NCBI GenBank assembly: GCA_965277805.1 | Contig: OZ255842.1 | Location: 4,704,001-4,768,000 of the forward strand | Direction: 5' to 3' | From: Candidatus Lustribacter sp. | GTDB taxonomy: Bacteria > Vulcanimicrobiota > Vulcanimicrobiia > Vulcanimicrobiales > Vulcanimicrobiaceae | Length of the DNA stretch: 64,000 nt | Shown here: piece after piece, positions 39,089-57,643 of the stretch | How the letters are laid out: each line of letters begins with the position of its first letter | Position numbering within the stretch: position 1 is the stretch's first letter | The notes under the pieces: model-generated | Told to the model about the DNA's origin: nothing | Database searches by the model: none | The model's input: the letters and a program-made list of their open reading frames with translations, nothing else | Made by a program: the position numbers and the translations under genes

Positions 39089-39095
39089 GCGGCGT

Positions 39096-41968: not shown

Positions 41969-41982
41969 CGCCCAAGCCGCCC

Positions 41983-42921: not shown

Positions 42922-42940
42922 AGCTAGTTCCCCCGTTCGT

Positions 42941-43525
42941 TCAAGTGAGGTTGGACGTTGCGCCGTCCGGAAGTTGTTGCGCGAACACGGCGAGCGTCGT
43001 TGCGGTAGCGGCGTACGCGCCCATCAGCATCACGAGGTTGACCAGCGTCTCGGTTTCGAACTGTTCGGCTGCGGCGGCGTAGGTGGAGCGGCGCACGCGG
43101 TGTTTGCCCAGCGCTTCGCGGCCGAGTTTGATGATCGCCGCTTCTTTGGCGCCGATGCCGCGCACGCGCTTGCGTTTGCGCACGATCTCGATGATCTCGT
43201 CCTCGAGGCCTTCGCGGCGCGCGTTGATCTCGTGCTGGTACCACTCAAAGTGAGAATCCATCTCGCGAGCGACCACGAGGATCGCCAGCTCGCGCAGCCG
43301 CACGTCGAGGCCGGTCTCGAAACGCAGCATCTGATTGAGCTTGTGGTGCGCGGCATAGACGCGCGGGCTGTGCAACACGATCCCGGCGGGCCCGCGAAAA
43401 CCGGCCAGCGAGCGCGGATCGTTGGCGACGCTGTCGTAGAGCGCTTGGCCCTCGGCGTCGAGCGGCTCGCGCTCGATCAACGGCAAACGGTTCCCAGATT
43501 CAGGAAAAACGTCACCCGGTCGCAT
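42941..43525 (-). CDS. Carboxymuconolactone decarboxylase (CMD/AhpD-like) family protein
   Basis: LHSP, RELAILVVARE, FEWYQHE; related to 14127-14726. Confidence 0.8.
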   Translation of the reverse strand: MRPGDVFPESGNRLPLIEREPLDAEGQALYDSVANDPRSLAGFRGPAGIVLHSPRVYAAHHKLNQMLRFETGLDVRLRELAILVVAREMDSHFEWYQHEINARREGLEDEIIEIVRKRKRVRGIGAKEAAIIKLGREALGKHRVRRSTYAAAAEQFETETLVNLVMLMGAYAATATTLAVFAQQLPDGATSNLT

Positions 43526-43601
43526 CTCCGGCCCCTTCGGTCCGGGCCGCGACCGCCCTTTGCACCGAGGGGGGCTTCTGCGATGGGGAGAAACCGATGC
43601 G

Positions 43602-44129
43602 ATGACGCGACAACGCACGGGAGCGCTGCTCATTCCCGAGGAGCACCTGGAGAAGCACCGTCGCCGGTTTGCGCGCTTCAAGCCGCTCAACGCGCAGGTG
43701 CTCTTCGCGGTTCGAGCGCTGGCCCAACGGATCAACGACGATGCCACCGAACGTCTCGCCGCGCTCGGGCTCACGGCTCGCCAATACAACTACCTCTCGG
43801 TGATCTACGTCGAGGAAAGCGTCACGCCGAACGAGATCGGGACGCTCATTCATACCGCGAATCCGACCGTTACCTCGATGCTCAACGCGCTCGAACGCGA
43901 CGGGCTCATCGTGCGCGAAGCGCATCCCGAAGACGGGCGCAGTTCGGTCGTGACGCTCACGCCGCGCGGCAAGACGCTCTATGAAAAAGCGTTCCAGCTC
44001 CATCACGATCCGCTCGAGGAAACGATGGCCGCGCTGAGCCTAGACGAGCGCAAAAAGCTGGTCGACGTGCTCGTTCGCCTGGGCGATTCTTTCGCCGAGT
44101 CGGGTAAGCAGAAAAAGAAGGCCAATTGA
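43602..44129 (+). CDS. MarR family transcriptional regulator
   Basis: GLTARQY, TVTSMLNALERDGLI, HPEDGRS...LTPRG. Confidence 0.9.
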   Translation: MTRQRTGALLIPEEHLEKHRRRFARFKPLNAQVLFAVRALAQRINDDATERLAALGLTARQYNYLSVIYVEESVTPNEIGTLIHTANPTVTSMLNALERDGLIVREAHPEDGRSSVVTLTPRGKTLYEKAFQLHHDPLEETMAALSLDERKKLVDVLVRLGDSFAESGKQKKKAN

Positions 44130-44171
44130 CTTTTAGGGTAGGGCACCCTAGAATGTTGTTAGAATACTAAG
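44126..44171 (+). promoter_or_regulatory. Sigma70-type promoter with overlapping palindromic operator
   Basis: TTGACT (44126-31), N17, TAGAAT (44149-54); GTTAGAATACTAAG (44158-71); TAGGGT-N5-ACCCTA inverted repeat in the spacer. Confidence 0.75.
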
Positions 44172-44183
44172 GACGAGGATTGC

Positions 44184-44561
44184 ATGCAAGACGTTAAGGT
44201 AATCGCGACGCGGTACACCGATCGCGAGAAGACCGATCCAAACGCGCGGATCATGAACCCGGCCGATTTCATCAAAGTGAATCCCGAGAAGCTGCAATCG
44301 GGACGGATGTACGTGGGCGATGAGTTTCGCGCGGTCGTACTGACCTTGACGCCGGGGCAGGCGCAGACGCTGCACATGCATCCCGAAACCTCGCACGCCT
44401 GGTTCATCATTTCCGGCAGCGGCGAAGTGACGATGGAAGACGGCCGTAAAGAGCGTGCGAGCGCCGGCCAGTTTTGCGTGCATCCGCGCAACAGCGTGCA
44501 CGGCATCACCAACGACACGAACGAAAACCTCACCTACATCGCCCTGTCGATCGGCGACTGA
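44184..44561 (+). CDS. Cupin domain protein
   Basis: HMHP...W..ISGSG and PRNSVHGITN cupin motifs. Confidence 0.85.
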   Translation: MQDVKVIATRYTDREKTDPNARIMNPADFIKVNPEKLQSGRMYVGDEFRAVVLTLTPGQAQTLHMHPETSHAWFIISGSGEVTMEDGRKERASAGQFCVHPRNSVHGITNDTNENLTYIALSIGD

Positions 44562-44571
44562 GAGAAACACG

Positions 44572-45549
44572 ATGTTGTCAGCGAAAGATTTCCACGGCTT
44601 GTGGGCGATCATCCCGACGCCTTCGAAACCCGGCGCCGATCGCGCCGACGCGGTCGATACGGTGGATCTCGAAGAGACCGCGCGCGTCGTCGACAAGCTG
44701 ATCAAAGACGGCTCCGATGCGCTGATCGTGCTGGGCACGACCGGCGAGTGCGCGACGCTGACGCGCAGCGAATACGAAGCCTTCGTCGACACGGTGCTGA
44801 CGACGGTTAACAAGCGTATCCCGTGCTTCATCGGCACGACGGCGCTCGGCACCCACGAAGTCGTCTATCGCACGCGCTTCGCGCAAGACCGCGGCGCCGA
44901 CGGCATCCTGCTCGGCCTGCCGATGTGGCAGCCGCTCACGGTCGTGCAAGCCGTGGAGTACTATCGCAGCGTCAGCGAGCTGTTCCCGAAACTCGCGATT
45001 CAAGTCTACGGCAACCCGCGCGCCTTCCGTTTTGCGTTTCCACCCGAGTTCTGGGCTGCGGTGGTCAAGGCCGTGCCGAACATCACCTCGGCGAAATACT
45101 CGCGTCCGAAAGCGCTGCTCGAATCACAAGCCGCCTCGAACGGCAAAGTGCACTTTCTGCCCAATGACGGCGGCGTGATGCAGTTCGTCGATCTGGCGCC
45201 GGAAACGACGACGGCCTGCTGGTCGACCGCGGCCTCGATGGGTCCGGAGCCGGCCCTGGCGCAGATCCGCGCGATCCAATCGGGCGACCTCGAGCGCGCG
45301 CGCGCGATCGCCAAAGACCTGAAGTGGACGCGCGAACCGATCGCGCCGATCGTCGCCGACGCCGACCTCTTCGCAAGCTACAACATCCAGCTCGAAAAGA
45401 CGCGCATCGGCCTCGCCGGTTACTGCAAAGCCGGTCCGTTGCGGCCGCCCTACAACGTGTACCCTGAAGAATATCACGCGCTCTTCCAGGAAAACGCAAC
45501 GCGCTGGCGCGAGCTGTGCGAGCGTTACTCGAAGGTAGCCGCTCCGTGA
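44572..45549 (+). CDS. DHDPS-family hydratase-aldolase, NahE (o-hydroxybenzylidenepyruvate hydratase-aldolase)-like
   Basis: GLWAIIPTP, LGTTGECATLT, GILLGLPMW, YGNPRAF, AKY, YNIQLEK. Confidence 0.85.
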   Translation: MLSAKDFHGLWAIIPTPSKPGADRADAVDTVDLEETARVVDKLIKDGSDALIVLGTTGECATLTRSEYEAFVDTVLTTVNKRIPCFIGTTALGTHEVVYRTRFAQDRGADGILLGLPMWQPLTVVQAVEYYRSVSELFPKLAIQVYGNPRAFRFAFPPEFWAAVVKAVPNITSAKYSRPKALLESQAASNGKVHFLPNDGGVMQFVDLAPETTTACWSTAASMGPEPALAQIRAIQSGDLERARAIAKDLKWTREPIAPIVADADLFASYNIQLEKTRIGLAGYCKAGPLRPPYNVYPEEYHALFQENATRWRELCERYSKVAAP

Positions 45550-46457
45550 CGTCCACTCCGGCCGTGACGGCGGTTCGCAGCGTCGAACTCGGCGTCCGCG
45601 ACCTCGATGCATCATCGGCCTTCTATCAAGACACGTGGCTGCTCGACGAAGTCGCGCGCACACCGACGGCCGTCTATCTGCGCGCGGCCGGATCCGAGCA
45701 CCACGTGCTCGCCATTCACGGCGATCAGCCGTTCGGCGTCGTGCGCATCAATCTCGCGGCACCCGATCGGGCAGCGGTCGACGCACTGCACGACGCAGTG
45801 CTCTCAGCGGCGGTGCCGATCGTCCATGCGCCGCGCGATCTCGATGAACCCGCCGGCGGTTACGCGTTCGCCTTTACCGACTACGAAGGACGGGAGTTCC
45901 GCATCGTCGCCGGCTTGCCCGTACACCGTGAAGTCGACCACTCGAACGACCGGCCGGAGAAGGTGAGCCATATCGTCTTGAACGCCGAGGCGGAGAGCGG
46001 CAGCGCGAAGCTTTTCTGCGAGAAGCTCGGGTTCCGGTTGCGCGATCAAACGGGCCGGGCGAATTTCATCGGCTGCAACGCCGATCATCACAGCCTGGCT
46101 TTCGGCCGCGTCGGCGGCAGCGCGATGAACCACGTTGCGTTCGACATCCACGATCTCGACGGCGAGATGCGAGCGGCCGGCCGCATGAAGCGCGGCGGGC
46201 ATCCGATCGAGTGGGGCGTCGGCCGTCATGGCCCCGGCCACAACGTTTTCGCCTATTTTATCGACCCCAACGGTTACGCCATCGAGTACACGACCGAGAT
46301 GGATCAAGTCGACGATGCAAAATACGTCCCGGGTACACCCGAGACGTGGAAGCGCGCGCCGCACTCGGACGCGTGGGGCATCGCCGACCCGCCGACCCAA
46401 CGTTTTCGCGACGCGATCACCGGAAAGCTAGGTGCTTATGCTGAGTCAACAAGATAA
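45546..46457 (+). CDS. VOC-family protein, extradiol dioxygenase-like
   Basis: Two VOC domains; SHIVL, CNADHHSL, NHVAF, WGVGRHGPGHNVFAYFIDP..IEY. Confidence 0.85.
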   Translation: MTSTPAVTAVRSVELGVRDLDASSAFYQDTWLLDEVARTPTAVYLRAAGSEHHVLAIHGDQPFGVVRINLAAPDRAAVDALHDAVLSAAVPIVHAPRDLDEPAGGYAFAFTDYEGREFRIVAGLPVHREVDHSNDRPEKVSHIVLNAEAESGSAKLFCEKLGFRLRDQTGRANFIGCNADHHSLAFGRVGGSAMNHVAFDIHDLDGEMRAAGRMKRGGHPIEWGVGRHGPGHNVFAYFIDPNGYAIEYTTEMDQVDDAKYVPGTPETWKRAPHSDAWGIADPPTQRFRDAITGKLGAYAESTR

Positions 46458-47703
46458 CGAGCGCTTGACGCGGGTCGGCCCCGGCACGCCGATGGGCAAC
46501 CTGTTCCGCCGCTATTGGATCCCCGCGCTGCTTTCCGAAGAGCTGGTCGAGGCCGATGGCCCGCCGGTGCGCGTGCGCTTACTCGGCGAAGACCTGGTGG
46601 CGTTCCGGGACACGGAAGGCGTGGTCGGCATCGTGTCGGCGTATTGTCCGCACCGCCGCGCGCCGATGTTCTTCGGCCGCAACGAAGATTGCGGTTTGCG
46701 TTGCGTGTATCACGGCTGGAAGTTCGATCGCAACGGCGCGTGCGTCGACATGCCGTCTGAGCCGCCGGATTCGCTGTTCAAAACGAAAGTCACGATCGAC
46801 GCCTATCCCACCTGGGAAGGCGGCGGCATGGTGTGGATCTACATGGGGCCGCTGGAGCTGAAGCCGGCGCCGCCGGATCACGAGTTGGTGCGCGCGCCCG
46901 CGAATCACCGTCACGTTTCGAAGCTGTTCGAAGATTGCAACTACCTGCAGGCGCTCGAGGGCGGCATCGATCCGACGCACGCAACGATCCTGCACAACGT
47001 CAAGATCGGCGATCGTTCGTTCCTCAACAAGTACGACGAGCTGGTTGCGGCGCTCGACATCGAGACGACCGATTACGGCTTCACCTACGCCGGCATCCGT
47101 CAGCACGCCGATTTCGACTGGATCCGCGTTTATCACTGGATCATGCCGTCGTATCACATGCGCGGCAGCGTGGCCGGCTTGTTCAACAAGCCCGGACAGA
47201 TCCCGACGATCAACGGCCACATCTGGGTCCCGATCGACGATTACAAGAGCTGGGTGTTCAGCTTCACGTATTCGGCCGATCCGAATCAGCCGATCTCGCA
47301 TGAGCACGTCGAGGAACAGGAAACGCGCCTCGGCCGCGGCACGAATACCGGCCCCGGCTACATGCCGGTCCGCAACCGCTCCAACGACTACCTCATCGAC
47401 CGGCAGTTGCAGAAGACCGAGAGCATGACCGGCATCGCCGGCGTCAACACGCAGGACTACGCATTGCAAGAAGGCATGGGTCCGATCGTCGACCGCACCA
47501 AGGAACACGTCGGTACGACGGATCGCGCTATCATCTTGCTGCGCAAAGTGCTGCTGGACGCGCTCAACACGATGGAAAAGGGCGGTACGCCGCCGGCGGT
47601 CGATCCGTCATCGTACCGCGGCGTGCGCGCGGTCGACCGCACGATTCCCAAGGGCACGGAATGGAAGGTCGTCTGCGAGCCGGATGCGGTAGCGTTGTTC
47701 TGA
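46438..47703 (+). CDS. Rieske non-heme iron oxygenase (phthalate 4,5-dioxygenase-like family)
   Basis: RVGPGTPMG, CPHRRA...CVYHGW, EGGIDPTHATILH, QDYALQE. Confidence 0.9.
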   Translation: MLSQQDNERLTRVGPGTPMGNLFRRYWIPALLSEELVEADGPPVRVRLLGEDLVAFRDTEGVVGIVSAYCPHRRAPMFFGRNEDCGLRCVYHGWKFDRNGACVDMPSEPPDSLFKTKVTIDAYPTWEGGGMVWIYMGPLELKPAPPDHELVRAPANHRHVSKLFEDCNYLQALEGGIDPTHATILHNVKIGDRSFLNKYDELVAALDIETTDYGFTYAGIRQHADFDWIRVYHWIMPSYHMRGSVAGLFNKPGQIPTINGHIWVPIDDYKSWVFSFTYSADPNQPISHEHVEEQETRLGRGTNTGPGYMPVRNRSNDYLIDRQLQKTESMTGIAGVNTQDYALQEGMGPIVDRTKEHVGTTDRAIILLRKVLLDALNTMEKGGTPPAVDPSSYRGVRAVDRTIPKGTEWKVVCEPDAVALF

Positions 47704-48815
47704 TGGAATCACAGCACCAGGCGGCCCGGTACGGTATCGATTCCTATCTCGATTGGGTCGCGCACGAGAAGCTGCTCGTGCACACGGGCCTCGCCATCGA
47801 CTGCTTCAAAGTCGAAACGCGCGAGTGGGCGCGCGCCGGCGTGCCTTCGGCCGTGCTCCATCTCGACGGCCGCGGCGACTTCTGCAACGCCTTCGTCTTC
47901 AACATTCCGGCCGGCGGCTCGACCATTCCGCAGCGGCATCTCTACGAAGAGATCGTCTACGTTCTCGAGGGCAACGGCTCGACGCAGATCGAGTTACCCA
48001 ACGGCGAAAAGCGCAGCTTCGAGTGGGGACCGACATCGCTATTTGCGATCCCGCTCAATGCGACGTATCGCCACTTCAACGCCAGCGGTCTCAAGCGCGC
48101 GCTCATCACCACGACCACCAACGCGCCGATGATGCTGAACCTCTTTCACAACGAGCGCTTCGTGTTCGACAACCCGTTCTTTTTCGACGACCGGGTCGGG
48201 AAGCAAGAGTACTTCGCGGGCGAGGGCGTGCTCAACATCGTGCGCCAAGGCAACAATACCTGGGAAACCAATTTCATCGCGAGCCTCGAGACGATCGATC
48301 TGCCCGACTTCTCCGATCGCGGCGCGGGCGGCGGCAACCTGATCTTCCTACTCGCCGACAGCTCGATGCACGCGCATGTCTCGGAGATGCCGGCCGGCAC
48401 CTACAAGAAAGCGCATCGCCACGTCGCCGGCTATAACGTCATGTGCGTGGCCGGCAGCGGCTTCTCGCTGATGTGGTTTGAAGGCGATCAGGAGTACGTG
48501 CGCATCGACTGGCACCACGGCGTGCTCTTTCCGCCCGCGCACCATCAGTTCCACCAGCACTTCACCACGAGCACGGTCGCGGCGCGCTACCTCGCGATGG
48601 GTTTCGGCAGCCTGCGCTATCCGTTCACGCAGGAACGCCGCGACGAAATTCTCGGCAAGGACGTGAAGTTCTCGACCAGCATCAAAAAGGGCGGCGACCA
48701 GGTCGAGTACGAGGACCAGGACCCGCGCATCCACCCCATCTGGCTTGCGGAAATGAAGAAGAACGGCCTCACCCCGCGCATGGACAAATACATCAAGACC
48801 GCCGAACCGGTCTAG
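47703..48815 (+). CDS. Bicupin protein (gentisate 1,2-dioxygenase-like fold)
   Basis: QRHLYEE...YRHFN and KAHRH...FHQHF cupin pairs; TGATG overlap with the Rieske gene. Confidence 0.75.
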   Translation: MESQHQAARYGIDSYLDWVAHEKLLVHTGLAIDCFKVETREWARAGVPSAVLHLDGRGDFCNAFVFNIPAGGSTIPQRHLYEEIVYVLEGNGSTQIELPNGEKRSFEWGPTSLFAIPLNATYRHFNASGLKRALITTTTNAPMMLNLFHNERFVFDNPFFFDDRVGKQEYFAGEGVLNIVRQGNNTWETNFIASLETIDLPDFSDRGAGGGNLIFLLADSSMHAHVSEMPAGTYKKAHRHVAGYNVMCVAGSGFSLMWFEGDQEYVRIDWHHGVLFPPAHHQFHQHFTTSTVAARYLAMGFGSLRYPFTQERRDEILGKDVKFSTSIKKGGDQVEYEDQDPRIHPIWLAEMKKNGLTPRMDKYIKTAEPV

Positions 48816-49138
48816 GTCGCTTTCCGGGCCTCAAAAACATCGTAGGCGATATTGCCGGCGGAGACCGCACTGGGATGGCCCGCGTAGAACGCGACGTGGG
48901 TCATCATCTCGGCGAGTTCGTCCTGCGTGACGCCGTTGTCGAGCGCGAAGCCGATGTGATAGCGCAACTGATCGGGCCGGTAGAGCGCGGTTAACACAGC
49001 GCAGGTGATGAGGCTGCGGTCGCGCTTGGAGAGTTGCGGCCGCTCCCACACATCGCCGAAGAGCACGTTCATCGCGATGTCCCAAAGTTTGGGCAGCGCC
49101 ATGGCCCACTTGGGCATGTGAGCCGGCTGTTCGGGCAT
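48812..49138 (-). CDS. Carboxymuconolactone decarboxylase family protein (PcaC-like)
   Basis: LFGDVWERPQLSKRDRSLIT, QLRYH...ALDNG, HVAFYAG. Confidence 0.88.
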   Translation of the reverse strand: MPEQPAHMPKWAMALPKLWDIAMNVLFGDVWERPQLSKRDRSLITCAVLTALYRPDQLRYHIGFALDNGVTQDELAEMMTHVAFYAGHPSAVSAGNIAYDVFEARKAT

Positions 49139-49213: not shown

Positions 49214-49657
49214 ATGCCGTTACGCATCGGAGATGCCGCACCCGATTTCACGCTTCAGAGTTCGGATGGCCGCGACGTTGCGCTGTCATCGTTCCACGGC
49301 GCGCAAAGCGTGGTGCTGATCTTCTATCCGAAAGATCAAACGCCGGGCTGCACCAAACAACTGTGCACGGCGAGCAACGACGCGGCGGCGTTCGCATCCG
49401 CGGGCGCCGCGGTCTTCGGCGTCAACGGCGACAACGCCGCATCGCACGAGCGCTTCATCGCCAAGTACCAGCTCGCAATGCCGCTGCTGATCGATCCCGG
49501 CCTTATGGTAGCGAAGGCCTACGACGCCGTTGCCGGCTTCGGTCCGATCAAAATCGTCAACCGCACGGTGGTCGGCATCAACCGCGCCGGCCGCATCGCC
49601 TTCTACCAGCGCGGCATGCCCGACACCCCAACCATCCTCAGCGCTCTCTTGTCCTGA
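49214..49657 (+). CDS. bcp: Peroxiredoxin (Bcp/PrxQ type)
   Basis: GDAAPDFTL, FYPKDQTPGCT. Confidence 0.85.
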   Translation: MPLRIGDAAPDFTLQSSDGRDVALSSFHGAQSVVLIFYPKDQTPGCTKQLCTASNDAAAFASAGAAVFGVNGDNAASHERFIAKYQLAMPLLIDPGLMVAKAYDAVAGFGPIKIVNRTVVGINRAGRIAFYQRGMPDTPTILSALLS

Positions 49658-49702: not shown

Positions 49703-50170
49703 CTAACCGTCGCTGTACGCGAGGTTATGCCGCACTCGCGCGGCCACGCTCCGAAACGTCTTCAAATCACTCGCACTAATCCCGCGAATGGCATCAGCCT
49801 GAGCGGAGTCGATTGCAGCGCGAATCGGTTGACGTAGCGCGCGGCCCTTGGGCGTGAGGTAGATCAGCGCTTTACGGCGATCCGTTGCGTCCTTGCGGCG
49901 TTCGACGATCTTCGCGCGTTCAAGCGTATCTATCACCGTGACGACCGTCGATGGATCGACGCCGACGCGTTCGCTCAACTCTGCTTGCGAGATGCCGTTC
50001 GTCTCGAACAGCGCGCGCAAATAATAGTAATGCTTGAAGGGGATCCCGATCTTCGCCAGTTCGGCGGCAAAGCGGCGCGACATCGCTTTGTGCGTGTGCC
50101 GCAGTACGTAGCCCACGCCCGAGCTGGACGGAATCGGGATCGCCGCGTCCGGAGATTTTTCTGCGCTCAT
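49703..50170 (-). CDS. MarR family transcriptional regulator
   Basis: GISQAELSE, STVVTVIDTLE, DRRKALIYLTPKG; start placed at ATG 50170. Confidence 0.9.
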   Translation of the reverse strand: MSAEKSPDAAIPIPSSSGVGYVLRHTHKAMSRRFAAELAKIGIPFKHYYYLRALFETNGISQAELSERVGVDPSTVVTVIDTLERAKIVERRKDATDRRKALIYLTPKGRALRQPIRAAIDSAQADAIRGISASDLKTFRSVAARVRHNLAYSDG

Positions 50171-50179
50171 GCTCTTGAC

Positions 50180-50239
50180 AATATAATCGAACCCGATTAA
50201 GAATACAAGGACATCCATATATTGGACTTCCAAGTATAT
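50180..50239. promoter_or_regulatory. Divergent marR control region: minus-strand promoter and palindromic operator
   Basis: Minus strand TTGTAT (50208-03), N17, TATATT (50185-80); palindrome TTGG-ACTT-CCAA (50222-33) with AT-rich flanks. Confidence 0.6.
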
Positions 50240-50262: not shown

Positions 50263-50631
50263 ATGACCGAAGTCTTTGCCGGAACGATCGGTGAGATCAT
50301 CGAGAACAACGATCGCACGATCGTCAAACACGGCAAGCTCGAGATCGGCGTTCTGCATCGCAACGGCGAACTTTACGCGTACAACAACCACTGCGTCCAC
50401 CAAGGCGGACCGGCGTGCGAGGGCATGATCATCGCACGCGTCGAGGACGTCATGCTGCCCGACAAGACGGTCACGGGCCAGCGCTTCAACCACGACGAGA
50501 TGCATTTCGTCTGTCCTTGGCACGGCGTGGAATACGATTTGAAAACCGGCGCGTGCGTGCCCAATCCCAAACGCCGCTTGCAAAAATTCGATGTCGTGCA
50601 GAAAGGGAATGAAGTTTATGTCATCATCTGA
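50263..50631 (+). CDS. Rieske (2Fe-2S) ferredoxin
   Basis: NHCVHQGGP...CPWHG; 122 aa; GGGAGG RBS. Confidence 0.92.
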   Translation: MTEVFAGTIGEIIENNDRTIVKHGKLEIGVLHRNGELYAYNNHCVHQGGPACEGMIIARVEDVMLPDKTVTGQRFNHDEMHFVCPWHGVEYDLKTGACVPNPKRRLQKFDVVQKGNEVYVII

Positions 50632-50899
50632 GATGGTCGCAACCTTGACGCCTGAAGGCGCTCTCGAGACGCTCGATTCCGCTGCGTTGCAGCAGCTCGT
50701 CGCCGCCGCGGTGCGCGAGTACGCGAAACGCGCCGATAGCCCGGGCGGCTACTTCCCGATCGTCCCCACGAGTACGATCACCGCAACCGACGCCATGATC
50801 GCGTGCACAGCCTTGCTCAAGGTCGTCAATATCGCCGTGTTCGAGTTGGGCTTGTGGCAATCGTGGGCCGGCGGCATCCCGCAAGAGGTTCCGGCATGA
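50618..50899 (+). CDS. Small hypothetical helical protein
   Basis: Overlaps both neighbours; ITATDAM...FELGLWQ. Confidence 0.7.
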   Translation: MSSSEMVATLTPEGALETLDSAALQQLVAAAVREYAKRADSPGGYFPIVPTSTITATDAMIACTALLKVVNIAVFELGLWQSWAGGIPQEVPA

Positions 50900-52125
50900 C
50901 GTCGACGCTGACGCTTCCTACCAGCGACCCGGGCGGCTTGAACATCACCGAGTTCGATACCCGCACGCTGCTCTCGCACGCCGCCGAACAATCGCGCGCC
51001 AACAACTACAACGATTTCTTCATCTGCGACGTCGACTCGCACCATTACGAGAACGAGTCCTTCGGCGCGATCGTCAAGTACATCGAAGATCCGGTCCTCC
51101 GTCACCAGGCGCAGGTCAGCGCTTCCCGCCGCTCGGGCGCAGGCTTTCTCGGCGGGGCGATCGGCAATCAAGACCAATCGGGCCGCGTGACACGCTACCA
51201 CACGCGGCACATGGATAGTTACCCGCCCGGTTCCCAGCGCGATGCGCACCTCTCGAAAAAGTGGATGGATGCGATGGGCGTTGACATCGCCTTCCTGTTC
51301 CCGTCCCCGATCCTGACGCTCGCCAGCCATCCCGTGCAGCACGTCCAGAATCAATATCTCCGCGCGTACAACTCCTGGCTGACGCAAGAGGTCCTACCGG
51401 CCGAGCCGCGGCTGCGTTCGATGCTATGCCTGCCGTTCAACGACCCGGCGGCCTCCTACCAGATGGTCCAAGACTTCGGCGACGCCAAGGGCGTCTCGGG
51501 TTTCATGATCACGGCGTCGCACAACCGGCCCGTGCATGACAATGCATACATGAAGCTCTACTCGGCGCTCGAAGAGCGCGGTCTGCCGCTCGCCTTTCAC
51601 GGCTCCTACAACTGGGCCGATACGTCGTTCTCGACTGCCAACAAGTTCATCACGGTGCACGCGCTCGGTTTCGTGTTTTACAACATGGTGCACATGGCGA
51701 ACTGGATCATGAACGGTCTGCCGGAGCGCTTTCCAAAGCTGAAGGTGATTTGGATGGAATCGGGCTTGGCCTGGGTGCCGTTCATGATGCAACGCTTCGA
51801 CAACGAGTACCTGATGCGCAGCAACGAGGCGCCGATGCTCAAAATGAAGCCCAGCGAGTACATGAAGCGCATGTACTACTCCGTGCAGCCGCTCGAGATC
51901 CCCGAAGACCTCTCGATCCTGCAGACGACGTTCAAGATGATCAACGCCGAGACGCAGCTGATGTACTCTTCGGACTATCCGCACTGGGATTTCGATCTGC
52001 CGAGTGTGATCTACGACTTGCCGTTCCTCTCCGAGGAAGGCAAACGGAACATCCTCGGCGAGACGGCGCGCAACGTATTCAACTTGGGGCCGCTGCCGAA
52101 GCTCGCCCAAATCCCGGCCGAATAA
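50896..52125 (+). CDS. Amidohydrolase_2-fold metalloprotein, candidate dinuclear oxygenase
   Basis: CDVDSHHYE, AFHG, ERFPKLK, WMESG, SSDYPHWDFD; in an operon with a Rieske ferredoxin. Confidence 0.88.
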   Translation: MTSTLTLPTSDPGGLNITEFDTRTLLSHAAEQSRANNYNDFFICDVDSHHYENESFGAIVKYIEDPVLRHQAQVSASRRSGAGFLGGAIGNQDQSGRVTRYHTRHMDSYPPGSQRDAHLSKKWMDAMGVDIAFLFPSPILTLASHPVQHVQNQYLRAYNSWLTQEVLPAEPRLRSMLCLPFNDPAASYQMVQDFGDAKGVSGFMITASHNRPVHDNAYMKLYSALEERGLPLAFHGSYNWADTSFSTANKFITVHALGFVFYNMVHMANWIMNGLPERFPKLKVIWMESGLAWVPFMMQRFDNEYLMRSNEAPMLKMKPSEYMKRMYYSVQPLEIPEDLSILQTTFKMINAETQLMYSSDYPHWDFDLPSVIYDLPFLSEEGKRNILGETARNVFNLGPLPKLAQIPAE

Positions 52126-52128
52126 CCG

Positions 52129-53433
52129 ATGGCCGCGATCGCCCCCGGCGGAGCGGCCCTCGGTTCACCGCTCTCGATCCAAGCCACCGCGCGCATTCGA
52201 GAGATCCTCGAAGGCCGCCGGCGCGGACTGCGCGCGGTGCTGCCGCTCGCCGGACCGGCGGTGGTCGCTTCGGTCGCCTACATGGATCCGGGGAATTTTG
52301 CAACGAACATCGCGGCCGGCTCGAAGTTCGGTTATGGGCTGCTCTGGGTCGTACTGCTTGCAAATGCGGTCGCGATGTTGTATCAGGCGATGTCGGCGAA
52401 GCTCGGCATCGTCACCAATCGCAATCTGGCCGAACTTAGCCGGGCGCATTTCCCGAAGCCGGCCGTGGTCGCGATGTGGCTCGCGAGTGAGGTCGCGGCG
52501 ATGGCCACCGACCTCGCCGAGTTCGTCGGCGGCGCGCTGGGCCTTTCGCTCTTGCTGCATTTGCCGCTGCTCTACGGCATGGCCGTCACCGCGGTGTTCA
52601 CCTATGTCATCCTATGCGTCGAGCCGAGCGGATTTCGTAAGATCGAACTGATCATCGGCTCACTGGTGCTCGCGATCGGCGCGTGTTATCTGCTCGAATT
52701 GTTCATCGTGCCGGCCGACTGGGGTGCCGTGGCCCTGCACTCGGTGCTGCCGCAATTCGGCGGCCCCGGAGCGGTCGCGCTCGCCGCGGGCATCGTCGGC
52801 GCAACGATCATGCCGCACGCGATCTTTCTGCACTCCGGGCTCACGCAAGATCGCGCACCCGCTCGGAGCGACGCCGAGCGGCGTTCGCTCGTTCGCTATT
52901 CGAATCGCGAGGTCGCGATCGCGCTATCGTTCGCGGGCTTGATCAACGTCGCGATGGTCGTGATGGCGGCCGCCGCGTTTCACGCGGGCCATAGCGGCGT
53001 GGCAGAGATCCAGACGGCGTATTACACGATGGTCCCGCTGCTCGGCGCCGCGGCCGGACTGGTGTTTCTCATCTCGCTGATGGCATCGGGTATCTCGAGT
53101 TCGGTCGTCGGGACGATGGCGGGGCAAATGATCATGCAAGGCTTCGTCGGCTTCAGCATTCCGGTCTGGCTACGGCGCACCATCACGATGGTACCGGCGT
53201 TCGTCGTGATCGCCCTCGGCATCAACGTGACCAACGCGCTTGTGGTCAGCCAGATTGCCCTGAGTATCGTGCTGCCTATCCCGATGGTTGCGCTGCTCGT
53301 GCTCAGCCGAAAACGTTCCTTGATGGGCAGCTTTACTGCCGGCCCGACGTTGCTCACATTTGCTGCTGTCGCGATCGTGGCGATCGTCGGGCTCAACGCG
53401 GTGCTCGTGGTCGGGGCGATCGGAGGGAATTAA
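52129..53433 (+). CDS. mntH: Nramp family divalent metal (Mn2+) transporter
   Basis: AYMDPGN, ATDLAEFVG, GATIMPHAIFLHS, GTMAGQMIMQGF. Confidence 0.95.
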   Translation: MAAIAPGGAALGSPLSIQATARIREILEGRRRGLRAVLPLAGPAVVASVAYMDPGNFATNIAAGSKFGYGLLWVVLLANAVAMLYQAMSAKLGIVTNRNLAELSRAHFPKPAVVAMWLASEVAAMATDLAEFVGGALGLSLLLHLPLLYGMAVTAVFTYVILCVEPSGFRKIELIIGSLVLAIGACYLLELFIVPADWGAVALHSVLPQFGGPGAVALAAGIVGATIMPHAIFLHSGLTQDRAPARSDAERRSLVRYSNREVAIALSFAGLINVAMVVMAAAAFHAGHSGVAEIQTAYYTMVPLLGAAAGLVFLISLMASGISSSVVGTMAGQMIMQGFVGFSIPVWLRRTITMVPAFVVIALGINVTNALVVSQIALSIVLPIPMVALLVLSRKRSLMGSFTAGPTLLTFAAVAIVAIVGLNAVLVVGAIGGN

Positions 53434-53460: not shown

Positions 53461-54114
53461 TTATTGGATCACGGCCTCGCAATGCTCGAGACATATCACG
53501 TTGTGGCCGAGGATCGAGACGCACTGCTCGACGCAAACGCTGTAATCGGGGCTGACGGCCGTCGACGCGTTGATCATCGACAACGTGGCGATGCCGGTAA
53601 CTTGCGCCGAGCCGTCATCGCCGATCAAGTCAGGACGCTTTGCGAGGCTCGACAGTACCGCGTTCGTGAGTACGATACCCGCCTCCATCGGCGTGCCGGC
53701 GCGCACGACTGAGCCGGCGAGTGCTTGCTCGAAGGGCGCGGGATTTTTCAGCGGGGGCCCCGGCGTGACGAGCCCCATAAGCGTCCGATCGTCCGGTGGC
53801 TTATGCGCGGCCGGCGTTTCGGGGTGAATTGTCGTGCACCGCGTGTAGCAGAGCACCTCCTGATCGAAAACTTTCCAGCACATGGTGCTACACAGGATCG
53901 TATCGAGTGGTCCCTCGCCGGCGGCCGCTGCCGGTGCAACCGTTACCGCGAAGGGGACGACCAGACTCTTGCCGTCTTCGGACGTGATTTTATGTGCCAT
54001 CGCGCTGCGCATGATGGACTTCATAAAGAGCACGCCGAGTTCTTCGGCGGAAGTCAGGGTCGACGCAAGCTGCGCGTACGGTTTTGCCGACCCGTGTGAA
54101 CCACCCTGAGCCAT
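53461..54114 (-). CDS. Hypothetical protein with two C-x3-C-x9-C-x3-C repeats
   Basis: CSTMCWKVFDQEVLCYTRC and CVEQCVSILGHNVICLEHC; GGGGAG RBS upstream of the ATG. Confidence 0.72.
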   Translation of the reverse strand: MAQGGSHGSAKPYAQLASTLTSAEELGVLFMKSIMRSAMAHKITSEDGKSLVVPFAVTVAPAAAAGEGPLDTILCSTMCWKVFDQEVLCYTRCTTIHPETPAAHKPPDDRTLMGLVTPGPPLKNPAPFEQALAGSVVRAGTPMEAGIVLTNAVLSSLAKRPDLIGDDGSAQVTGIATLSMINASTAVSPDYSVCVEQCVSILGHNVICLEHCEAVIQ

Positions 54115-54226: not shown

Positions 54227-55156
54227 TCATAGCAGTTCGCGCGCGTCGAACCCCTTCGGGAGTTGCTTGTATTTTGCCATCAGATCGATGACCGGCTGGA
54301 TGGCGGCGGCGTTGAAGCTCGTCGCGGTATAGCCGTGGCGCATGTCGGTGGCGACATTCAGCTCCATGCCGGTGAGCGGCAGCAGTAGCGGGATCGTTTC
54401 CTTGACGTGCGTGTTCGCGTAACCCGCGGCGGCTTCGATCGCCTTGCTGAAGCCCGCGACGGCTTCTTTGTTCTTCGCCGCATAATCGCGCGTGCAGAAG
54501 TACACGACTTCCAGAATCGGCCGCGGATAGCCTAAGAGTTCGTCGACGAAGTAGCGCAGCTTGCCGGCCCGTACCGCTTGCATCATGCCCGGTTCGCCCA
54601 TCAGGCCGGCGTCGACGCGCCCTTCTTCGAGCGCGATCGCGACCGCGTTGAACGGCATCTCGACGAACTTCACCGTTGACGAATCGCCGCCGCGCGCATC
54701 GATCATCGCGCGCAGACCGAGATAGGCGATATCGCCGATCGCGCTGCAGGTCACCGTTTTGCCTTGCAGGTCGAGCGGCGTCTTCAGCGGTGAGTTCGCC
54801 GTGACGAGATATCCCGCGGTCGGATCGCCTTTGCGATACGACAATCCCGGCGCGATCACGGTGAACGGGATGCCGCGCGCGTAGGCGGCGATGATCGAGG
54901 TGACGCTGGCCTTACCGATGTCGGCTGCGCCGCCGACGATCGCTTGCGCGACGATCGCGCCCGTGCCGGCCGGTTGTAGCGTTACCTCGACGCCGTTATC
55001 GCGGAAGAGCCCCGACGTCTGCGCGTAGAGCAGCGGACGCAGATCGTCGGCGACGGTCGAGATGAAGTGCACCGGCGTGAGTTTCTCGCCGGCCGCCAGC
55101 GCCGTTCCGGCCGCGGCAGCGAACAAACCCTGGAGCATGAGCGCGCGTGTCAGCAT
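54227..55156 (-). CDS. ABC substrate-binding protein, SsuA/NMT1-like
   Basis: DDLRPLLYAQ, SPLKTPLDLQGK, CSAIGD, EGRVDAG; GAAGG RBS. Confidence 0.85.
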   Translation of the reverse strand: MLTRALMLQGLFAAAAGTALAAGEKLTPVHFISTVADDLRPLLYAQTSGLFRDNGVEVTLQPAGTGAIVAQAIVGGAADIGKASVTSIIAAYARGIPFTVIAPGLSYRKGDPTAGYLVTANSPLKTPLDLQGKTVTCSAIGDIAYLGLRAMIDARGGDSSTVKFVEMPFNAVAIALEEGRVDAGLMGEPGMMQAVRAGKLRYFVDELLGYPRPILEVVYFCTRDYAAKNKEAVAGFSKAIEAAAGYANTHVKETIPLLLPLTGMELNVATDMRHGYTATSFNAAAIQPVIDLMAKYKQLPKGFDARELL

Positions 55157-55190
55157 GGGACCTTCCTTCGTCAGACCATTCATCGAACGT

Positions 55191-55553
55191 TTAGCGGACG
55201 TTGTCGATCGCCAGTAATTGCCAGCCCGATGAGCCGCGTGTCCACACGCTCATATAACGCAACGGCGACGTACGGGGTTCGCCGGCCACCGTCACGTCGA
55301 GCTCCGCGCGCGCGCAGAGGATGGCGACATCACCGCTCACCCGCACGTCCGTTTCCCCGCGTGTAATCGCGCGATAGCGGACGCGTCCCGACCGCGTGTG
55401 CTCGAGAAAGGCGGCTTTGCCTTCACGCCGCCCGTCGTTGTGGACGAAGACGAGTTCGGGGCGCACGAGCCGATCGAGCGCCTCGATATCGCAAGCAACT
55501 ATGGCCGCCAGGCGGGCTTCATCGGCGGCCAAAACTGCATCGTCGTCGGTCAT
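55191..55553 (-). CDS. NTF2-like (DUF4440) protein
   Basis: RLAAIVACD...FVHNDG...GDVA...VW...WQL. Confidence 0.78.
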   Translation of the reverse strand: MTDDDAVLAADEARLAAIVACDIEALDRLVRPELVFVHNDGRREGKAAFLEHTRSGRVRYRAITRGETDVRVSGDVAILCARAELDVTVAGEPRTSPLRYMSVWTRGSSGWQLLAIDNVR

Positions 55554-55573
55554 TCCCGCCACTTCCTAAGGCA

Positions 55574-55617
55574 TTGACTTTTACTATCCGAGACCCTATT
55601 CTACTTAGAACTCTATC
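55574..55617 (+). promoter_or_regulatory. Sigma70-type promoter with operator-like site, similar to the 44126 promoter
   Basis: TTGACT (55574-79), N17, TATTCT (55597-602), then CTTAGAACTCTAT; shares TTGACTTTTA-N9-ACCCTA with 44126. Confidence 0.7.
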
Positions 55618-55664
55618 ATTTTTCATCCTCCCGTCCAGACGTTCGGCCCACCCGAGGGGGACCC

Positions 55665-56672
55665 GTGAAGTTCGGCGTTTTTGATCATCTCGACCGTAAC
55701 GATTTACAACTCGCCGACTTTTACGAGCAGCGCCTCGATTTCGTTGAGCTCTACGATCGTTTGGGTTTCTACAGCTACCATCTCGCCGAACATCACGGTA
55801 CGCCGCTCGGTATGGCATCATCACCGAGCGTGTTTCTTTCCGCCGTTGCGCGCCGCACGAAGCGCCTGCGTTTCGGCCCGATGGTGTACTTGCTGCCGCT
55901 CTATCATCCGATTCGTTTGGCGGAAGAGATCGCGATGCTCGATCAGCTCGGCCGCGGCCGGCTCGATGTGGGCGTCGGACGCGGCCGCTCGCCGATCGAG
56001 CTGCAGAGCTTCGGCGTCAATCCGGCCGTAGCCGAAGCGGTGTACGAAGAATCGCTCGAGATCATCCGGCGCGTGCTGAGCGACGGCGTCGTGAATTTTA
56101 GCGGCACGCACTACACCATGAGCGACGTGCATATCCAGATGCGTCCACTGCAGACACCGCATCCGCCGCTTTGGTATGGGATCGGCTCGCTCGGCGGCGT
56201 CGACAAATTCGTTGCTGCCGATTTTAACGTCATCACGATCTCGAAGCCCGCGTTGGCCGGCGAACTCGTGCGCAAGTATCTCGATACCGCAGCGAATGCC
56301 GGCAAGGATTTGCTCGCGGGCGTGAGCCGGTTCGTCGTCTGTGCCGATACGACCGATCAAGCGCTCAAGATCGCGCGCCGGGCGTATCCCTTCTGGCACA
56401 AGAGTTTCGACTATCTCTTTGCGATTCACGGCCTGCGCCCGGTGCAGGCGTGGCCGGGCAGCTTCGATGCGATGGCGGCCGACGGCCTCGCATTTGCCGG
56501 CTCGCCCGACGATCTTACCGAAGCGCTATCGGCGCATATGGACCAGATCGGCGCGAACTATTTCGCCGGCCAATTCGTTTTCGGTGACATGACGGTCGAA
56601 GAAGGCCGCCGGTCGATCGATCTCTTCAGCCAAAAAGTCATGCCGGCCCTTGCCGGCGCGGTTTCTGCTTAA
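55665..56672 (+). CDS. LLM (luciferase-like) flavin-dependent monooxygenase
   Basis: FGVFDH, AEHHGTP, PIRLAEEIAMLD, PLQTPHPP; paralog of 16958-18028. Confidence 0.88.
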   Translation: MKFGVFDHLDRNDLQLADFYEQRLDFVELYDRLGFYSYHLAEHHGTPLGMASSPSVFLSAVARRTKRLRFGPMVYLLPLYHPIRLAEEIAMLDQLGRGRLDVGVGRGRSPIELQSFGVNPAVAEAVYEESLEIIRRVLSDGVVNFSGTHYTMSDVHIQMRPLQTPHPPLWYGIGSLGGVDKFVAADFNVITISKPALAGELVRKYLDTAANAGKDLLAGVSRFVVCADTTDQALKIARRAYPFWHKSFDYLFAIHGLRPVQAWPGSFDAMAADGLAFAGSPDDLTEALSAHMDQIGANYFAGQFVFGDMTVEEGRRSIDLFSQKVMPALAGAVSA

Positions 56673-56680
56673 GGATTCAC

Positions 56681-57643
56681 ATGGATTTCCGGAACATCAT
56701 TCGCACCTCAGTTCGTTTGAGCGCGGCCCTTGTCGCGCTTTTCGTTGCCACGGCGGCAACGGCGCCCGCGCAACCGGCCCTGACGACGATCCACTTCATC
56801 TCCTCGGCCAGCGACGATCTGCGGCCACTGCTGTACGCGCAGAGTGCGGGCCTCTTTCAAAAAGCCGGACTCAACGTGGTGGTCGACAAGGCCGCGAGCG
56901 GCGGCGTGGTCGCGCAGGCGATCATCGGCGGCGCCGACGACATCGGCAAGGCGAGCCTCGTTTCGCTGATCGCCGGCTACGCTCGCGGCGTACCGTTCGC
57001 GATGATCGCGCCGTCGGCCGTCCATCTGAAAGACGACGCAAACTCCGGGATCATGATCGCGGCGAATTCCCCGCTCAAATCAGTCCTCGACTTGCAAGGC
57101 AAGGTCGTCGGTTGCACGGCGATCGGCGACATCGGGTATCTCGGCACGCGCGCGATGATCGATTCGATGGGCGGCGACTCGGCGACCGTGAAATGGGTCG
57201 AAATTCCCATTGCGACGCTCGCGCCCGCCGTCGAGCAAGGCCGCGTCGTTGCGGGCTTGACGACCGAACCGTACATGTCGAAGGACTTAGCCTCCGGTAA
57301 GTTCCGCATTCTCACGGACATGCTCAACGGCTACTCGAAGCCGATCCTCGAATCGGCGTTCTTCTCGACCCGCGACTATGCAGCGAAGAACCACGACGCC
57401 GTGGTCAAGTTTGCGAAGGTGATGTCGCAAGCAGCCGGCTACGCGAACACGCACATCCCGGAAACGCTGCCATTGATGGTTTCGTTCAGCGGCATGGATC
57501 CGGAAGCGGCTGCGAAGATGCACAAAACGCAAACTGCGCTCTCGTTCGATCCCTCGGCACTTCAACCCGTGATCGACGCCGCGGCCAAATATCAGATCAT
57601 CCCGAAAGGCTTCTCGGCGCGCGACATGCTCGCGCTGCCCTGA
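56681..57643 (+). CDS. ABC substrate-binding protein, SsuA/NMT1-like
   Basis: Signal peptide; DDLRPLLYAQ, SPLKSVLDLQGK, CTAIGD. Confidence 0.85.
   Translation: MDFRNIIRTSVRLSAALVALFVATAATAPAQPALTTIHFISSASDDLRPLLYAQSAGLFQKAGLNVVVDKAASGGVVAQAIIGGADDIGKASLVSLIAGYARGVPFAMIAPSAVHLKDDANSGIMIAANSPLKSVLDLQGKVVGCTAIGDIGYLGTRAMIDSMGGDSATVKWVEIPIATLAPAVEQGRVVAGLTTEPYMSKDLASGKFRILTDMLNGYSKPILESAFFSTRDYAAKNHDAVVKFAKVMSQAAGYANTHIPETLPLMVSFSGMDPEAAAKMHKTQTALSFDPSALQPVIDAAAKYQIIPKGFSARDMLALP

Follow-up and report, generated by a model that had tools for sequence, protein, structure and literature searches.

We describe a four-gene locus of Candidatus Lustribacter sp. that probably forms an operon and that joins a predicted amidohydrolase-related dinuclear oxygenase (ARO) to a stand-alone Rieske ferredoxin, a small protein of an unnamed family and an Nramp-type metal importer, MntH. 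The locus spans positions 50263-53433 of a 64,000-nucleotide stretch of DNA (GenBank assembly GCA_965277805.1, contig OZ255842.1, positions 4,704,001 to 4,768,000 of the forward strand), hereafter the window, taken from a genome of 5.53 Mb assembled as a single contig; coordinates below are those of the window. We read the locus as a MarR-controlled operon encoding a multicomponent ARO monooxygenase, with an importer expressed alongside so that the oxygenase receives Mn2+ or Fe2+, an interpretation that we hold at even chances. The genes concerned are the following:

50263-50631, plus strand: stand-alone Rieske [2Fe-2S] ferredoxin, 122 amino acids (PF00355, E = 2e-11), with C43-V-H45 and C83-P-W85-H86; presumed electron donor to the oxygenase

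50618-50899, plus strand: putative accessory protein of an unnamed family, 93 amino acids from the ATG common to homologues; core T57-A-T-D...V-F75-E-L-G-x-W80-Q-x-W83, three predicted helices

50896-52125, plus strand: predicted ARO, PF04909 (Amidohydro_2), 409 amino acids from an ATG (E = 2.4e-20); predicted metal ligands D47, H49, H235, E288, D360, H363 and D365; second-sphere residues S48 (gamma1), F135 (gamma2), S358 (gamma3), W364 (gamma4) and F366 (gamma5)

52129-53433, plus strand: mntH, Nramp/MntH proton-coupled Mn2+/Fe2+ importer, 434 amino acids (PF01566, E = 5.7e-117; NF001923, 481.6 bits, cut-off 430; TIGR01197, 292.4 bits, cut-off 272.5)

49703-50170, minus strand: divergent MarR-family regulator (PF01047, 2.3e-12; PF12802, 7e-12)

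Four tightly packed genes

The first-pass annotation of this DNA had proposed four tightly coupled genes with a MarR gene divergent from them, and this layout is borne out, all four reading frames lying on the plus strand. The Rieske and small-protein genes overlap by 14 nucleotides, the small-protein and oxygenase genes share a 4-nucleotide ATGA overlap, and a 3-nucleotide gap (TAA-ccg-ATG) separates the oxygenase gene from mntH. Because the genes are so tightly packed, they are very probably read as one transcript. Some starts allow a choice. The small protein could begin at an upstream ATG (50591, giving 102 amino acids), and the 93-amino-acid start is the one whose M1-S2 is common to the small proteins; the oxygenase has an alternative GTG at 50803, and its relatives align from residues 2-5 of the 409-amino-acid form; the MarR frame stays open up to a GTG at 50245, with the ATG at 50170 (CAT read at 50168-50170) as the likelier start.

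Downstream of the operon and convergent to mntH lies a 217-amino-acid, Cys-containing open reading frame (ORF) with no Pfam family (53461-54114, minus strand). At the closest orthologous locus (L114) a gene for an NMT1-type binding protein directly follows mntH, and the window ORF is an insertion or a non-gene.

The amidohydrolase-fold protein as a predicted Rieske-dependent oxygenase

The third gene product belongs by profile to PF04909 (73.9 bits against a cut-off of 26.4), and the first-pass annotation had taken this protein, which a routine annotation would label an amidohydrolase, for an O2-dependent dinuclear oxygenase. Its motifs and its clustering with solved AROs support that assignment. 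The ARO superfamily is defined by an N-terminal D-x-H and a C-terminal D-x-P-H-x-D/E with about 200 or more residues before the latter, and no characterised hydrolase or decarboxylase of the fold is reported to have either motif (PMC13154177, cited here and below from its main text). In the window protein, D47-S48-H49 falls within a modelled strand (44-50), and in a family alignment of 35 sequences H49 is invariant and D47 nearly so; D360-Y-P-H363-W-D365, preceded by 359 residues, is invariant in the same alignment. H235 and E288 are invariant as well and align with the conserved His and Glu of 8SM7, SfbO, AibH2 and PtmU3; judging from these alignments and the paper's ligand count, H235 (after strand 5) and E288 (the bridging carboxylate, after strand 6) would complete the set of ligands. 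The motifs DVDSH, H, ESG and DYPHWD singled out in the first pass are thus real, as D45-V-D47-S-H49, H235, E288-S-G and the C-terminal motif. Across the related loci (the best 80 of at least 597 relatives in a species-representative genome collection, with the oxygenase as anchor), the C-terminal motif occurs in 80/80 and D-x-H was found by pattern in 77/80, the three misses being late-starting matches or failures of the regular expression.

Comparison with solved structures points the same way. In a search with the single sequence the five best matches are AROs and decarboxylases rank later: 8SM7 (1.2e-39), 8SM9 (1.1e-28), SfbO (8SM6; 4e-28) and AibH2 (3.3e-26) are followed by the weaker PtmU3 (4.7e-19), LigW (3.9e-13) and ACMSD (about 3e-5). 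A profile of the 35 family members again matches 8SM7 (1.9e-50), SfbO (5.2e-43) and AibH2 (2.8e-34), and more weakly PtmU3 (2.5e-17), LigW (3.4e-17), ACMSD (about 1e-12) and DitZ (4e-10). Set against LigW and ACMSD on one side and AibH2 and PtmU3 on the other, a check proposed with the first-pass annotation, the protein groups with the AROs (8SM7 versus LigW in the profile search). An AlphaFold2 (AF2) model (predicted TM-score 0.83) consists of alternating strands and helices, and Foldseek ranks 8SM7, SfbO, AibH2 and 8SM9 ahead of LigW, with TM-scores of 0.80-0.82 to 8SM7, SfbO and AibH2 (8SM7, E 1.2e-18, TM-score 0.81). The PF04909 protein fits the published sequence definition, and we predict with high confidence that it is a Rieske-dependent ARO.

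An ordinary mononuclear enzyme (decarboxylase, hydratase or hydrolase), with the Rieske protein serving another enzyme nearby, is an extremely improbable reading; that other enzyme would be:

46432-47703: LigXa-like Rieske oxygenase, 2.6 kb upstream

This alternative draws on the fold and Pfam family that the protein has in common with the mononuclear decarboxylases LigW and ACMSD, on a LigW match that is significant in itself, and on the proximity of a ferredoxin-requiring oxygenase. However, LigW and ACMSD are without D-x-H and D-x-P-H-x-D, as the published survey reports for the characterised hydrolases and decarboxylases in general (PMC13154177), and AROs match the family profile 20 to 30 orders of magnitude better than decarboxylases do. 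Homologues unlinked to Rieske genes had been named in the first pass as evidence that would speak against an oxygenase; a Rieske gene accompanies the oxygenase at 76/80 related loci, whereas the LigXa-like gene occurs only at the two closest orthologous loci and as one partial match.

The Rieske-dependent ARO reading can be placed among known systems. The best sequence and fold matches are the Rieske-linked 'low-potential' AROs (SfbO with SfbR; the orphan proteins D3EI84/8SM7, W7L2Y2/8SM9 and B6JH23/8SM8), which have the same PF04909 TIM barrel and seven ligand positions and, as in the window system, an adjacent small Rieske ferredoxin and aromatic gamma4 and gamma5 residues. Yet the window oxygenase is only 24-26% identical to 8SM7/SfbO-type AROs over the structural alignment, and its family is longer by about 40 residues at the N-terminus and carries an insert, at 81-100, that is modelled poorly. 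The 'high-potential' diiron enzymes PtmU3 and DitZ have in common with it the ligand motifs and a hydrophilic gamma1 (Ser in PtmU3), and PtmU3 also a Phe at gamma2 in the same F-P-S context, but their overall similarity is much weaker (profile values above), and reportedly they lack Rieske neighbours and vary at gamma4, where the residue is non-aromatic (PMC13154177). The AibH1H2-AibG-AibF system, a 2-aminoisobutyrate hydroxylase (Hibi et al., 2021; Powell et al., 2023), shares an ARO catalytic subunit, a Rieske ferredoxin and a transporter gene at the end; it has a second, non-catalytic ARO-like subunit (AibH1), a flavin mononucleotide reductase in the cluster and an amino-acid permease for the substrate, whereas the window operon has a single ARO chain, a 93-amino-acid helical protein, a metal importer and no reductase found in the window. 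That such proteins are oxygenases and not hydrolases is already published as a class, of which the window protein is a new member (Liu et al., 2024, PMC10811679; Liu et al., 2026, PMC13154177): candidate AROs were found in 2024 through PF04909 genes beside small Rieske genes (PMC10811679), and about 17,000 ARO sequences, mostly annotated as amidohydrolases, are now estimated (PMC13154177).

The Rieske partner and the electron supply

The Rieske gene of the window stands two genes upstream of the oxygenase gene, separated from it by the small gene that overlaps both neighbours. Its cluster-binding pattern, C-x-H and C-P-W-H with a spacer of 36-37 residues, was found in 71/71 Rieske partners of the related loci (tblastn matches of at least 100 amino acids). 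On the oxygenase side, gamma5 is aromatic (Phe366; F in 78 and M in 2 of the 80 loci). An aromatic gamma5 is typical of ferredoxin-dependent AROs, and a surface Trp of the SfbR ferredoxin stacks on it in a published docking model (PMC13154177); Trp85 of the window Rieske protein may, on our analysis, be the equivalent of that residue. Domains of FAD/NAD(P) ferredoxin reductases were found in none of the 51 ORFs scanned among the 60 longest non-overlapping ones of the window, in agreement with the first pass, the only related match being a Flavin_Reduct domain protein (39917-41209). Elsewhere in the genome, two PF00175 and 11 PF07992 proteins are candidate reductases.

Nramp genes behind oxygenase genes in the genus

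The last gene of the operon had been called an intact Nramp/MntH transporter, and it passes both curated MntH models. It has DPGN at residue 53 and MPH from residue 228, motifs in TM1 and TM6 that we take to define the Nramp metal site. To place the gene among its relatives we used 19 ARO loci of the genus (the window, a paralogous locus of the same genome and 17 further fetched loci) and 60 related genomes, of which seven are other genomes of the genus and 53 lie outside it; the counts include six genomes marked unpublished. The oxygenase is present at E<=1e-60 in 6/7 of the other genus genomes and in 0/53 of the relatives outside the genus.

An Nramp gene directly follows the ARO gene at 9/19 genus loci, where it is MntH-type five times and of a second type, here Nramp2, four times. 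The distances from ARO stop to Nramp start at these nine loci are 3, 3, 0, 6, 3, -4, 6, 7 and 12 nucleotides, which supports the earlier view of mntH as part of the operon. The junction of the window type was also found at four orthologous genus loci, and each of the five close MntH copies detected in the genus directly follows an ARO gene. At one orthologous locus (L126:6001-7228, genome G003) the oxygenase gene matches as two tblastn pieces in different frames, broken at about residue 170, with intact flanking Rieske, small and MntH genes; this is a frameshift or an assembly error.

The paralogous locus (C1:2154871-2158622; L009:4871-8622) has the same order, with a divergent MarR gene followed by Rieske, small, oxygenase and Nramp2 genes, Nramp2 overlapping the oxygenase stop by 4 nucleotides. 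Identity between the two loci is 64% for the oxygenase, 57% for the Rieske protein, 51% for the small protein and 44% for MarR, and for window MntH against Nramp2 it is 29% over 95 amino acids. Nramp2 (L009:4871-6220, minus strand) matches Pfam Nramp at 6.8e-51, scores 62.8 bits on the MntH model and has E-N-D-G-P-S and T-V-T-P-W in place of the canonical D-P-G-N and M-P-H; the ion that it carries may differ. Five Nramp-family genes are present in the genome, among which window MntH alone passes the NCBIfam MntH cut-off; the other four score 242.8, 116.5, 83.6 and 62.8 bits on that model. Two unrelated Nramp lineages thus hold the same slot behind paralogous oxygenases, and this is our main argument that the link between Nramp and ARO is functional. 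That the importer serves the metal demand of the oxygenase is, in our estimate, a proposition with about equal weight on either side.

Origin of the cassette and of its Nramp genes

We built a quick maximum-likelihood tree of AROs with 93 rows (77/80 related loci, 14 genus loci, the window and the paralogue; two duplicates, one truncated locus and three broken genus copies were left out), with Shimodaira-Hasegawa-like approximate likelihood ratio test (SH-aLRT) values as its only support. Among alphaproteobacterial sequences, 14/16 genus rows (12 fetched loci, the window and the paralogue) form one clade with SH-aLRT 99, in which the MntH-linked copies make up one subclade; two divergent copies (L127 and L128) fall outside the genus clade on long branches. 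A second quick tree, also with SH-aLRT only, covers MntH in 42 rows: 27 are every third of 80 MntH-anchored loci, joined by L211, L032, seven sister-family loci, four genus loci, the window and a second copy from its own genome. Genus MntH lies inside a Pseudomonadota clade (SH-aLRT 100), apart from the MntH of the sister family, and its branching order matches that of the ARO copies. Because of this clade placement and the matching branching orders, the trees indicate that the oxygenase cassette and the window-type mntH were both imported from Pseudomonadota and have since been inherited together.

Nramp2 looks like a resident gene. Its orthologues (57-61% identity) occur across the class in genomes without ARO, and at 3/3 tested ARO-free loci a gene for a DtxR-family metal repressor stands directly upstream, as it likewise does at three sister-family MntH loci. 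The paralogous cassette picked up a different Nramp-family gene in the same slot, and in coming to lie there two unrelated Nramp lineages would have given up a metal-responsive regulator in favour of the oxygenase promoter. This evidence is circumstantial, the loci being kin and not independent samples. We had considered that window mntH, too, might be a captured resident gene under DtxR control; this was rejected on the MntH tree, which puts the genus copies inside Pseudomonadota, and the idea is kept for Nramp2 only. As to the wider origin of Nramp2, a single-protein scan of genome contigs confirmed no relative.

Genomes of the genus measure 3.4-5.8 Mb against 1.6-4.5 Mb in the family's other genera, and one of them (G002) holds eight matches to the oxygenase. 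It seems that, once transferred from Pseudomonadota, the oxygenase cassette multiplied as the genome grew.

Weighing the importer link

Several observations weigh against a functional link. Ten of the 19 genus ARO loci have no Nramp gene, mostly showing NMT1-type binding proteins or other genes downstream. Outside the genus, Nramp was found at 1/78 ARO-anchored loci, and there (Gemmatimonas) it lies 1.7 kb upstream of the Rieske gene with its own MntR-like gene. Conversely, an ARO occurs at 1/80 MntH-anchored loci, that of Caulobacter sp. S45, where Rieske, small, ARO, major facilitator superfamily (MFS) and MntH genes follow one another on one strand with 98 and 21 nucleotides between the last three; here the separate MFS gene would fill the role of substrate transporter. 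Lastly, a close Nramp2 copy in genome G001 (L148, contig C117) is not ARO-linked and stands behind a DUF2277 gene and a gene for a 356-amino-acid protein with a C-terminal Rieske domain. Lack of conservation of mntH in the neighbourhood, which the first pass had set down as telling against its proposal, therefore holds outside the genus and not inside it.

The Caulobacter locus (L211; NZ_LMUL01000001.1, 10-5331) comes from a cultured isolate and counts as an independent case in favour of the link. It also has a MarR gene, on the same strand; its small protein is divergent in sequence, and its oxygenase is 51% identical to that of the window, with the motifs C-D-V-D-A-H-H and D-W-P-H-F-D-F.

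These observations could mean that mntH is a passenger, the cell's manganese importer left in place by gene transfer or rearrangement and perhaps read from a promoter inside the oxygenase gene. In addition to the near absence of the link outside the genus and the Nramp-free loci within it, the window copy, as the sole passer of the MntH model among five Nramp genes, could be the housekeeping importer, and arrangements inherited among kin do not make nine loci nine independent events. We nevertheless regard a passenger mntH as unlikely, if the most serious of the alternatives. The slot is held by two unrelated lineages; the 5/5 close MntH copies of the genus are ARO-linked, and MntH is not a universal housekeeping gene there, since at E<=1e-20 MntH goes unmatched in three of the seven other genus genomes (G001, G006 and G007), and the only match in G002 is 27% identical. 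With gaps of -4 to 12 nucleotides an intergenic promoter would not fit, the Nramp-linked ARO loci lack the usual DtxR/MntR partner gene, and the arrangement recurs in Caulobacter sp. S45.

The slot usually holds a gene for substrate uptake, and the Nramp protein might accordingly import the substrate or a metal-substrate chelate. At related loci elsewhere, the first downstream genes are often those of TctC receptors (one cluster, 21 ORFs in 18 loci) or NMT1-type binding proteins (6 loci); in the aib cluster it is the permease AibT that comes after the genes for the oxygenase and the redox components (Hibi et al., 2021); and Nramp2 is without the DPGN and MPH motifs of the metal site. Against this stand the canonical motifs of window MntH and its passing of the curated models, the DtxR-family repressors in front of both Nramp types in ARO-free genomes, and the MFS transporter that Caulobacter sp. 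S45 has besides MntH. We consider substrate uptake very improbable.

The association of Nramp with ARO appears to be new, with comparative support that is genuine and restricted to the genus. Among the papers searched, none combines 'amidohydrolase-related dinuclear oxygenase' and MntH; oxygenases of other kinds were not searched for Nramp genes in the same operon. In the main texts of the two ARO papers (PMC10811679, PMC13154177) no Nramp gene is mentioned, and the words 'MntH', 'transporter' and 'uptake' do not occur in Powell et al. (2023).

Metalloenzyme operons with a metal importer of their own

Such operons are known from cobalt nitrile hydratase, with NhlF, and from urease and hydrogenase clusters, with nickel permeases. 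They follow the same logic of co-expression as the metal-supply reading of the window operon, but differ from it in enzyme, metal and transporter family.

Manganese or iron

Two sets of second-sphere residues have been published as predictors of the metal. Mn-capable 'low-potential' AROs have a hydrophobic gamma1, a small and hydrophilic gamma2 and an aromatic gamma4 (PMC13154177, Table 1), whereas diiron 'high-potential' AROs have a hydrophilic gamma1, a hydrophobic gamma2 and a non-aromatic gamma4, all three being required; gamma1 is Val or Ile in 8SM7/SfbO-type AROs, gamma2 of SfbO is Thr, and the gamma1 Ser of PtmU3 is called hydrophilic (PMC13154177). The window oxygenase departs from the Mn pattern at gamma1, where Ser48 is the residue of diiron PtmU3, and at gamma2, where the invariant Phe135, which closes modelled strand 131-136, has Thr108 as its aligned counterpart in SfbO and a Phe in PtmU3; it agrees with that pattern at gamma4, where Trp364 aligns with Trp341 of SfbO. 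With regard to the diiron class the picture is reversed, gamma1 and gamma2 agreeing and gamma4 (Trp364) not. The oxygenase therefore lies in neither high-confidence metal class of the survey as given in its main text (PMC13154177), and its signature is a hybrid one.

This mixture characterises the whole family, which goes with the Mn-capable group by overall similarity and Rieske partner and with the diiron group by two of three diagnostic residues. In the 77/80 loci with D-x-D-x-H-H-Y-E, gamma1 is S or A in 75, G in one and C in one, and [SA]-S-D-Y-P-H-W-D-[FM] occurs in 80/80. Alanine, we presume, also counts as hydrophilic on the octanol scale of PMC13154177.

The mixed residues weigh against manganese as the metal supplied, as does one published result: five hydrophilic-gamma1 proteins showed no Mn(III)Fe(III) signal, and one of them is a tested ARO whose homology to the Mn-capable group is the higher (PMC13154177). 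That ARO may be A0A2K8M2W4, a guess from Table 1 and the legend of Figure 7. By the published criteria, iron would if anything be favoured over manganese. Besides Mn2+, Nramp proteins transport Fe2+ (NCBIfam TIGR01197 description), and given that the importer does serve the enzyme, we put manganese rather than iron somewhat short of an even chance. The 'manganese-supplied' oxygenase of the first-pass annotation fares accordingly: the importer link gains genus-restricted support, and the predictor, with diiron-type Ser48 and Phe135 beside Mn-type Trp364, lends none yet to manganese itself.

A stronger version of the manganese reading would make the operon a self-sufficient Mn C-H oxygenase kit for an iron- or manganese-poor cell, in which Nramp imports Mn2+, the small protein is an obligatory third component of a new kind and the cofactor in vivo is Mn/Fe, in spite of gamma1 and gamma2 residues that point to diiron. 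The small protein could then be a cofactor-assembly or metal-selection factor, or an effector like those of four-helix-bundle diiron monooxygenases. We find this version doubtful, more so than a passenger mntH; if true, metal supply and accessory proteins would join the second sphere in determining which metal an ARO uses.

A conserved small-protein family

The gene between the Rieske and ARO genes encodes what appears to be a member of a new family, and it is a real, conserved gene. Using tblastn and a hidden Markov model of our own alignment, we found it in this position at 54/80 related loci, and also at 16/17 of the further genus loci, at the paralogous locus and in Caulobacter sp. S45. 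It is missing at 26/80 loci, including a clade of the tree whose Rieske and oxygenase genes lie directly side by side; it is thus not universally required. An exhaustive search of 1.84 billion proteins (E<=1e-3) returned 1,101 representatives at 50% identity; a separate search that scored 8,000 candidates gave at least 3,686 clusters at 90% identity. Where members are named, it is almost always as 'hypothetical protein', and Pfam domains are absent throughout.

The conserved core consists of two to three helices ending V-F-E-L-G-M-W-Q-x-W, and in an AF2 model of moderate confidence (predicted local distance difference test score 74.9) helices span 21-39, 56-69 and 75-84. Pfam and NCBIfam yielded no family for the protein, none being common to more than one of 35 members at E<=1; sequence and profile searches of the PDB gave no match (best E = 0.19), the ESM Atlas no usable match, and a structural search with the model no solved chain alike (best Z 3.1). 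Fused forms were not found either, a search for longer proteins giving one match, a 423-amino-acid protein without Pfam domains. Many alphaproteobacterial (Xanthobacteraceae) members carry an N-terminal extension of 40-80 residues rich in Lys, Ala and Pro and probably disordered (L080:5530-5964, L086:5456-5896), which the window protein lacks. The main texts of the two ARO papers (PMC10811679, PMC13154177) mention no conserved small-protein gene.

Regulation and the flanking peroxide-type genes

Three further features bear on the control of the operon:

50175-50204, plus strand: promoter-like site TTGACA-18-AAGAAT in the 92-bp MarR/Rieske spacer, 10/12 consensus positions

49220-49657: AhpC/TSA gene, directly beyond the MarR gene

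48812-49138: CMD/AhpD-family gene, beyond the MarR gene

Promoter-like sites number two in 4.8 kb against 1.2 +/- 1.0 expected by chance, and taken alone the site at 50175-50204 is not above chance; a cTTGACAA element is present at a comparable place in 10/10 MarR/Rieske spacers of the genus, read by eye. Between 50205 and 53648 we found no promoter-like site. A search for riboswitches and other RNA elements gave none, with one chance-level Rfam match (RcsR1, E = 0.48), and a MarR operator dyad considered at about 50217-50239 was dropped, no inverted repeat with a 6-nucleotide seed being present. The divergent MarR gene itself is shared with the paralogous locus and eight further genus loci.

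The company of peroxiredoxin and AhpD-like genes raises the alternative that imported Mn2+ buffers reactive oxygen species released by an uncoupled oxygenase, within a peroxide-stress unit under an OhrR-like MarR regulator. Manganese import is a common response to oxidative stress, the AhpC/TSA and CMD genes lie directly beyond MarR, and MarR matches the OhrR model weakly (2.8e-11, 43 bits). This score is, however, far under the 200-bit cut-off, and the AhpC and CMD genes are kept only at the two closest orthologous loci (L114 and L126) and not at the other 15 genus loci or the paralogous locus. A protective role is improbable in our judgement.

Neighbourhood and substrate

At related loci the oxygenase is surrounded by genes for TctC receptors, NMT1/SsuA-like binding proteins, M24 (creatinase/prolidase-like) peptidases, formamidase, glutathione S-transferase and ABC permeases. 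The window itself is a catabolic island (14726-18307, 38123-48815 and 54227-57643) with at least six NMT1/SsuA-like genes, two LigXa-like Rieske oxygenases, two luciferase-like monooxygenases, a flavin-reductase-domain protein, cupins, an extradiol-type (glyoxalase-fold) protein and a DHDPS-family protein. Taken together, neighbours and window content suggest the catabolism of small organic acids, sulfonates or N-alkyl compounds, and no more. A window bicupin had no match at the paralogous locus at 1e-5, and the idea of a shared bicupin was dropped. Unrelated to the operon, the window also encodes a urease cluster (beta, alpha, UreG-like and UreD; 4206-8985) and a B12-binding radical SAM protein (26988-28964).

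Discussion

In the metal-supply reading, a reductase encoded elsewhere in the genome would reduce the Rieske ferredoxin, which would dock near W364 and F366 and pass electrons to a carboxylate-bridged two-metal site; this site would activate O2 and hydroxylate or oxidatively dealkylate a small organic substrate. The three-helix protein of 93 amino acids would be a family-specific accessory and may act as a structural or effector subunit or as an assembly factor. MntH, translationally coupled to the oxygenase gene, would raise cytoplasmic Mn2+ and/or Fe2+ on induction, so that newly made oxygenase is correctly metallated.

Should the importer link prove incidental, an ordinary new member of a known enzyme class remains. 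In addition, a large, unnamed family of small proteins travels with one big branch of the Rieske-dependent AROs. For AROs, a class recognised only recently, the chief open question is what decides between the use of iron, of manganese or of both, and it has so far been studied only in vitro, from sequence and redox potential (PMC13154177). With an importer in lockstep with an oxygenase of mixed residue signature, the operon would offer a genetic handle on the metal choice of AROs in vivo, and the similar arrangement in the cultured Caulobacter sp. S45 would make the importer link tractable for direct tests.

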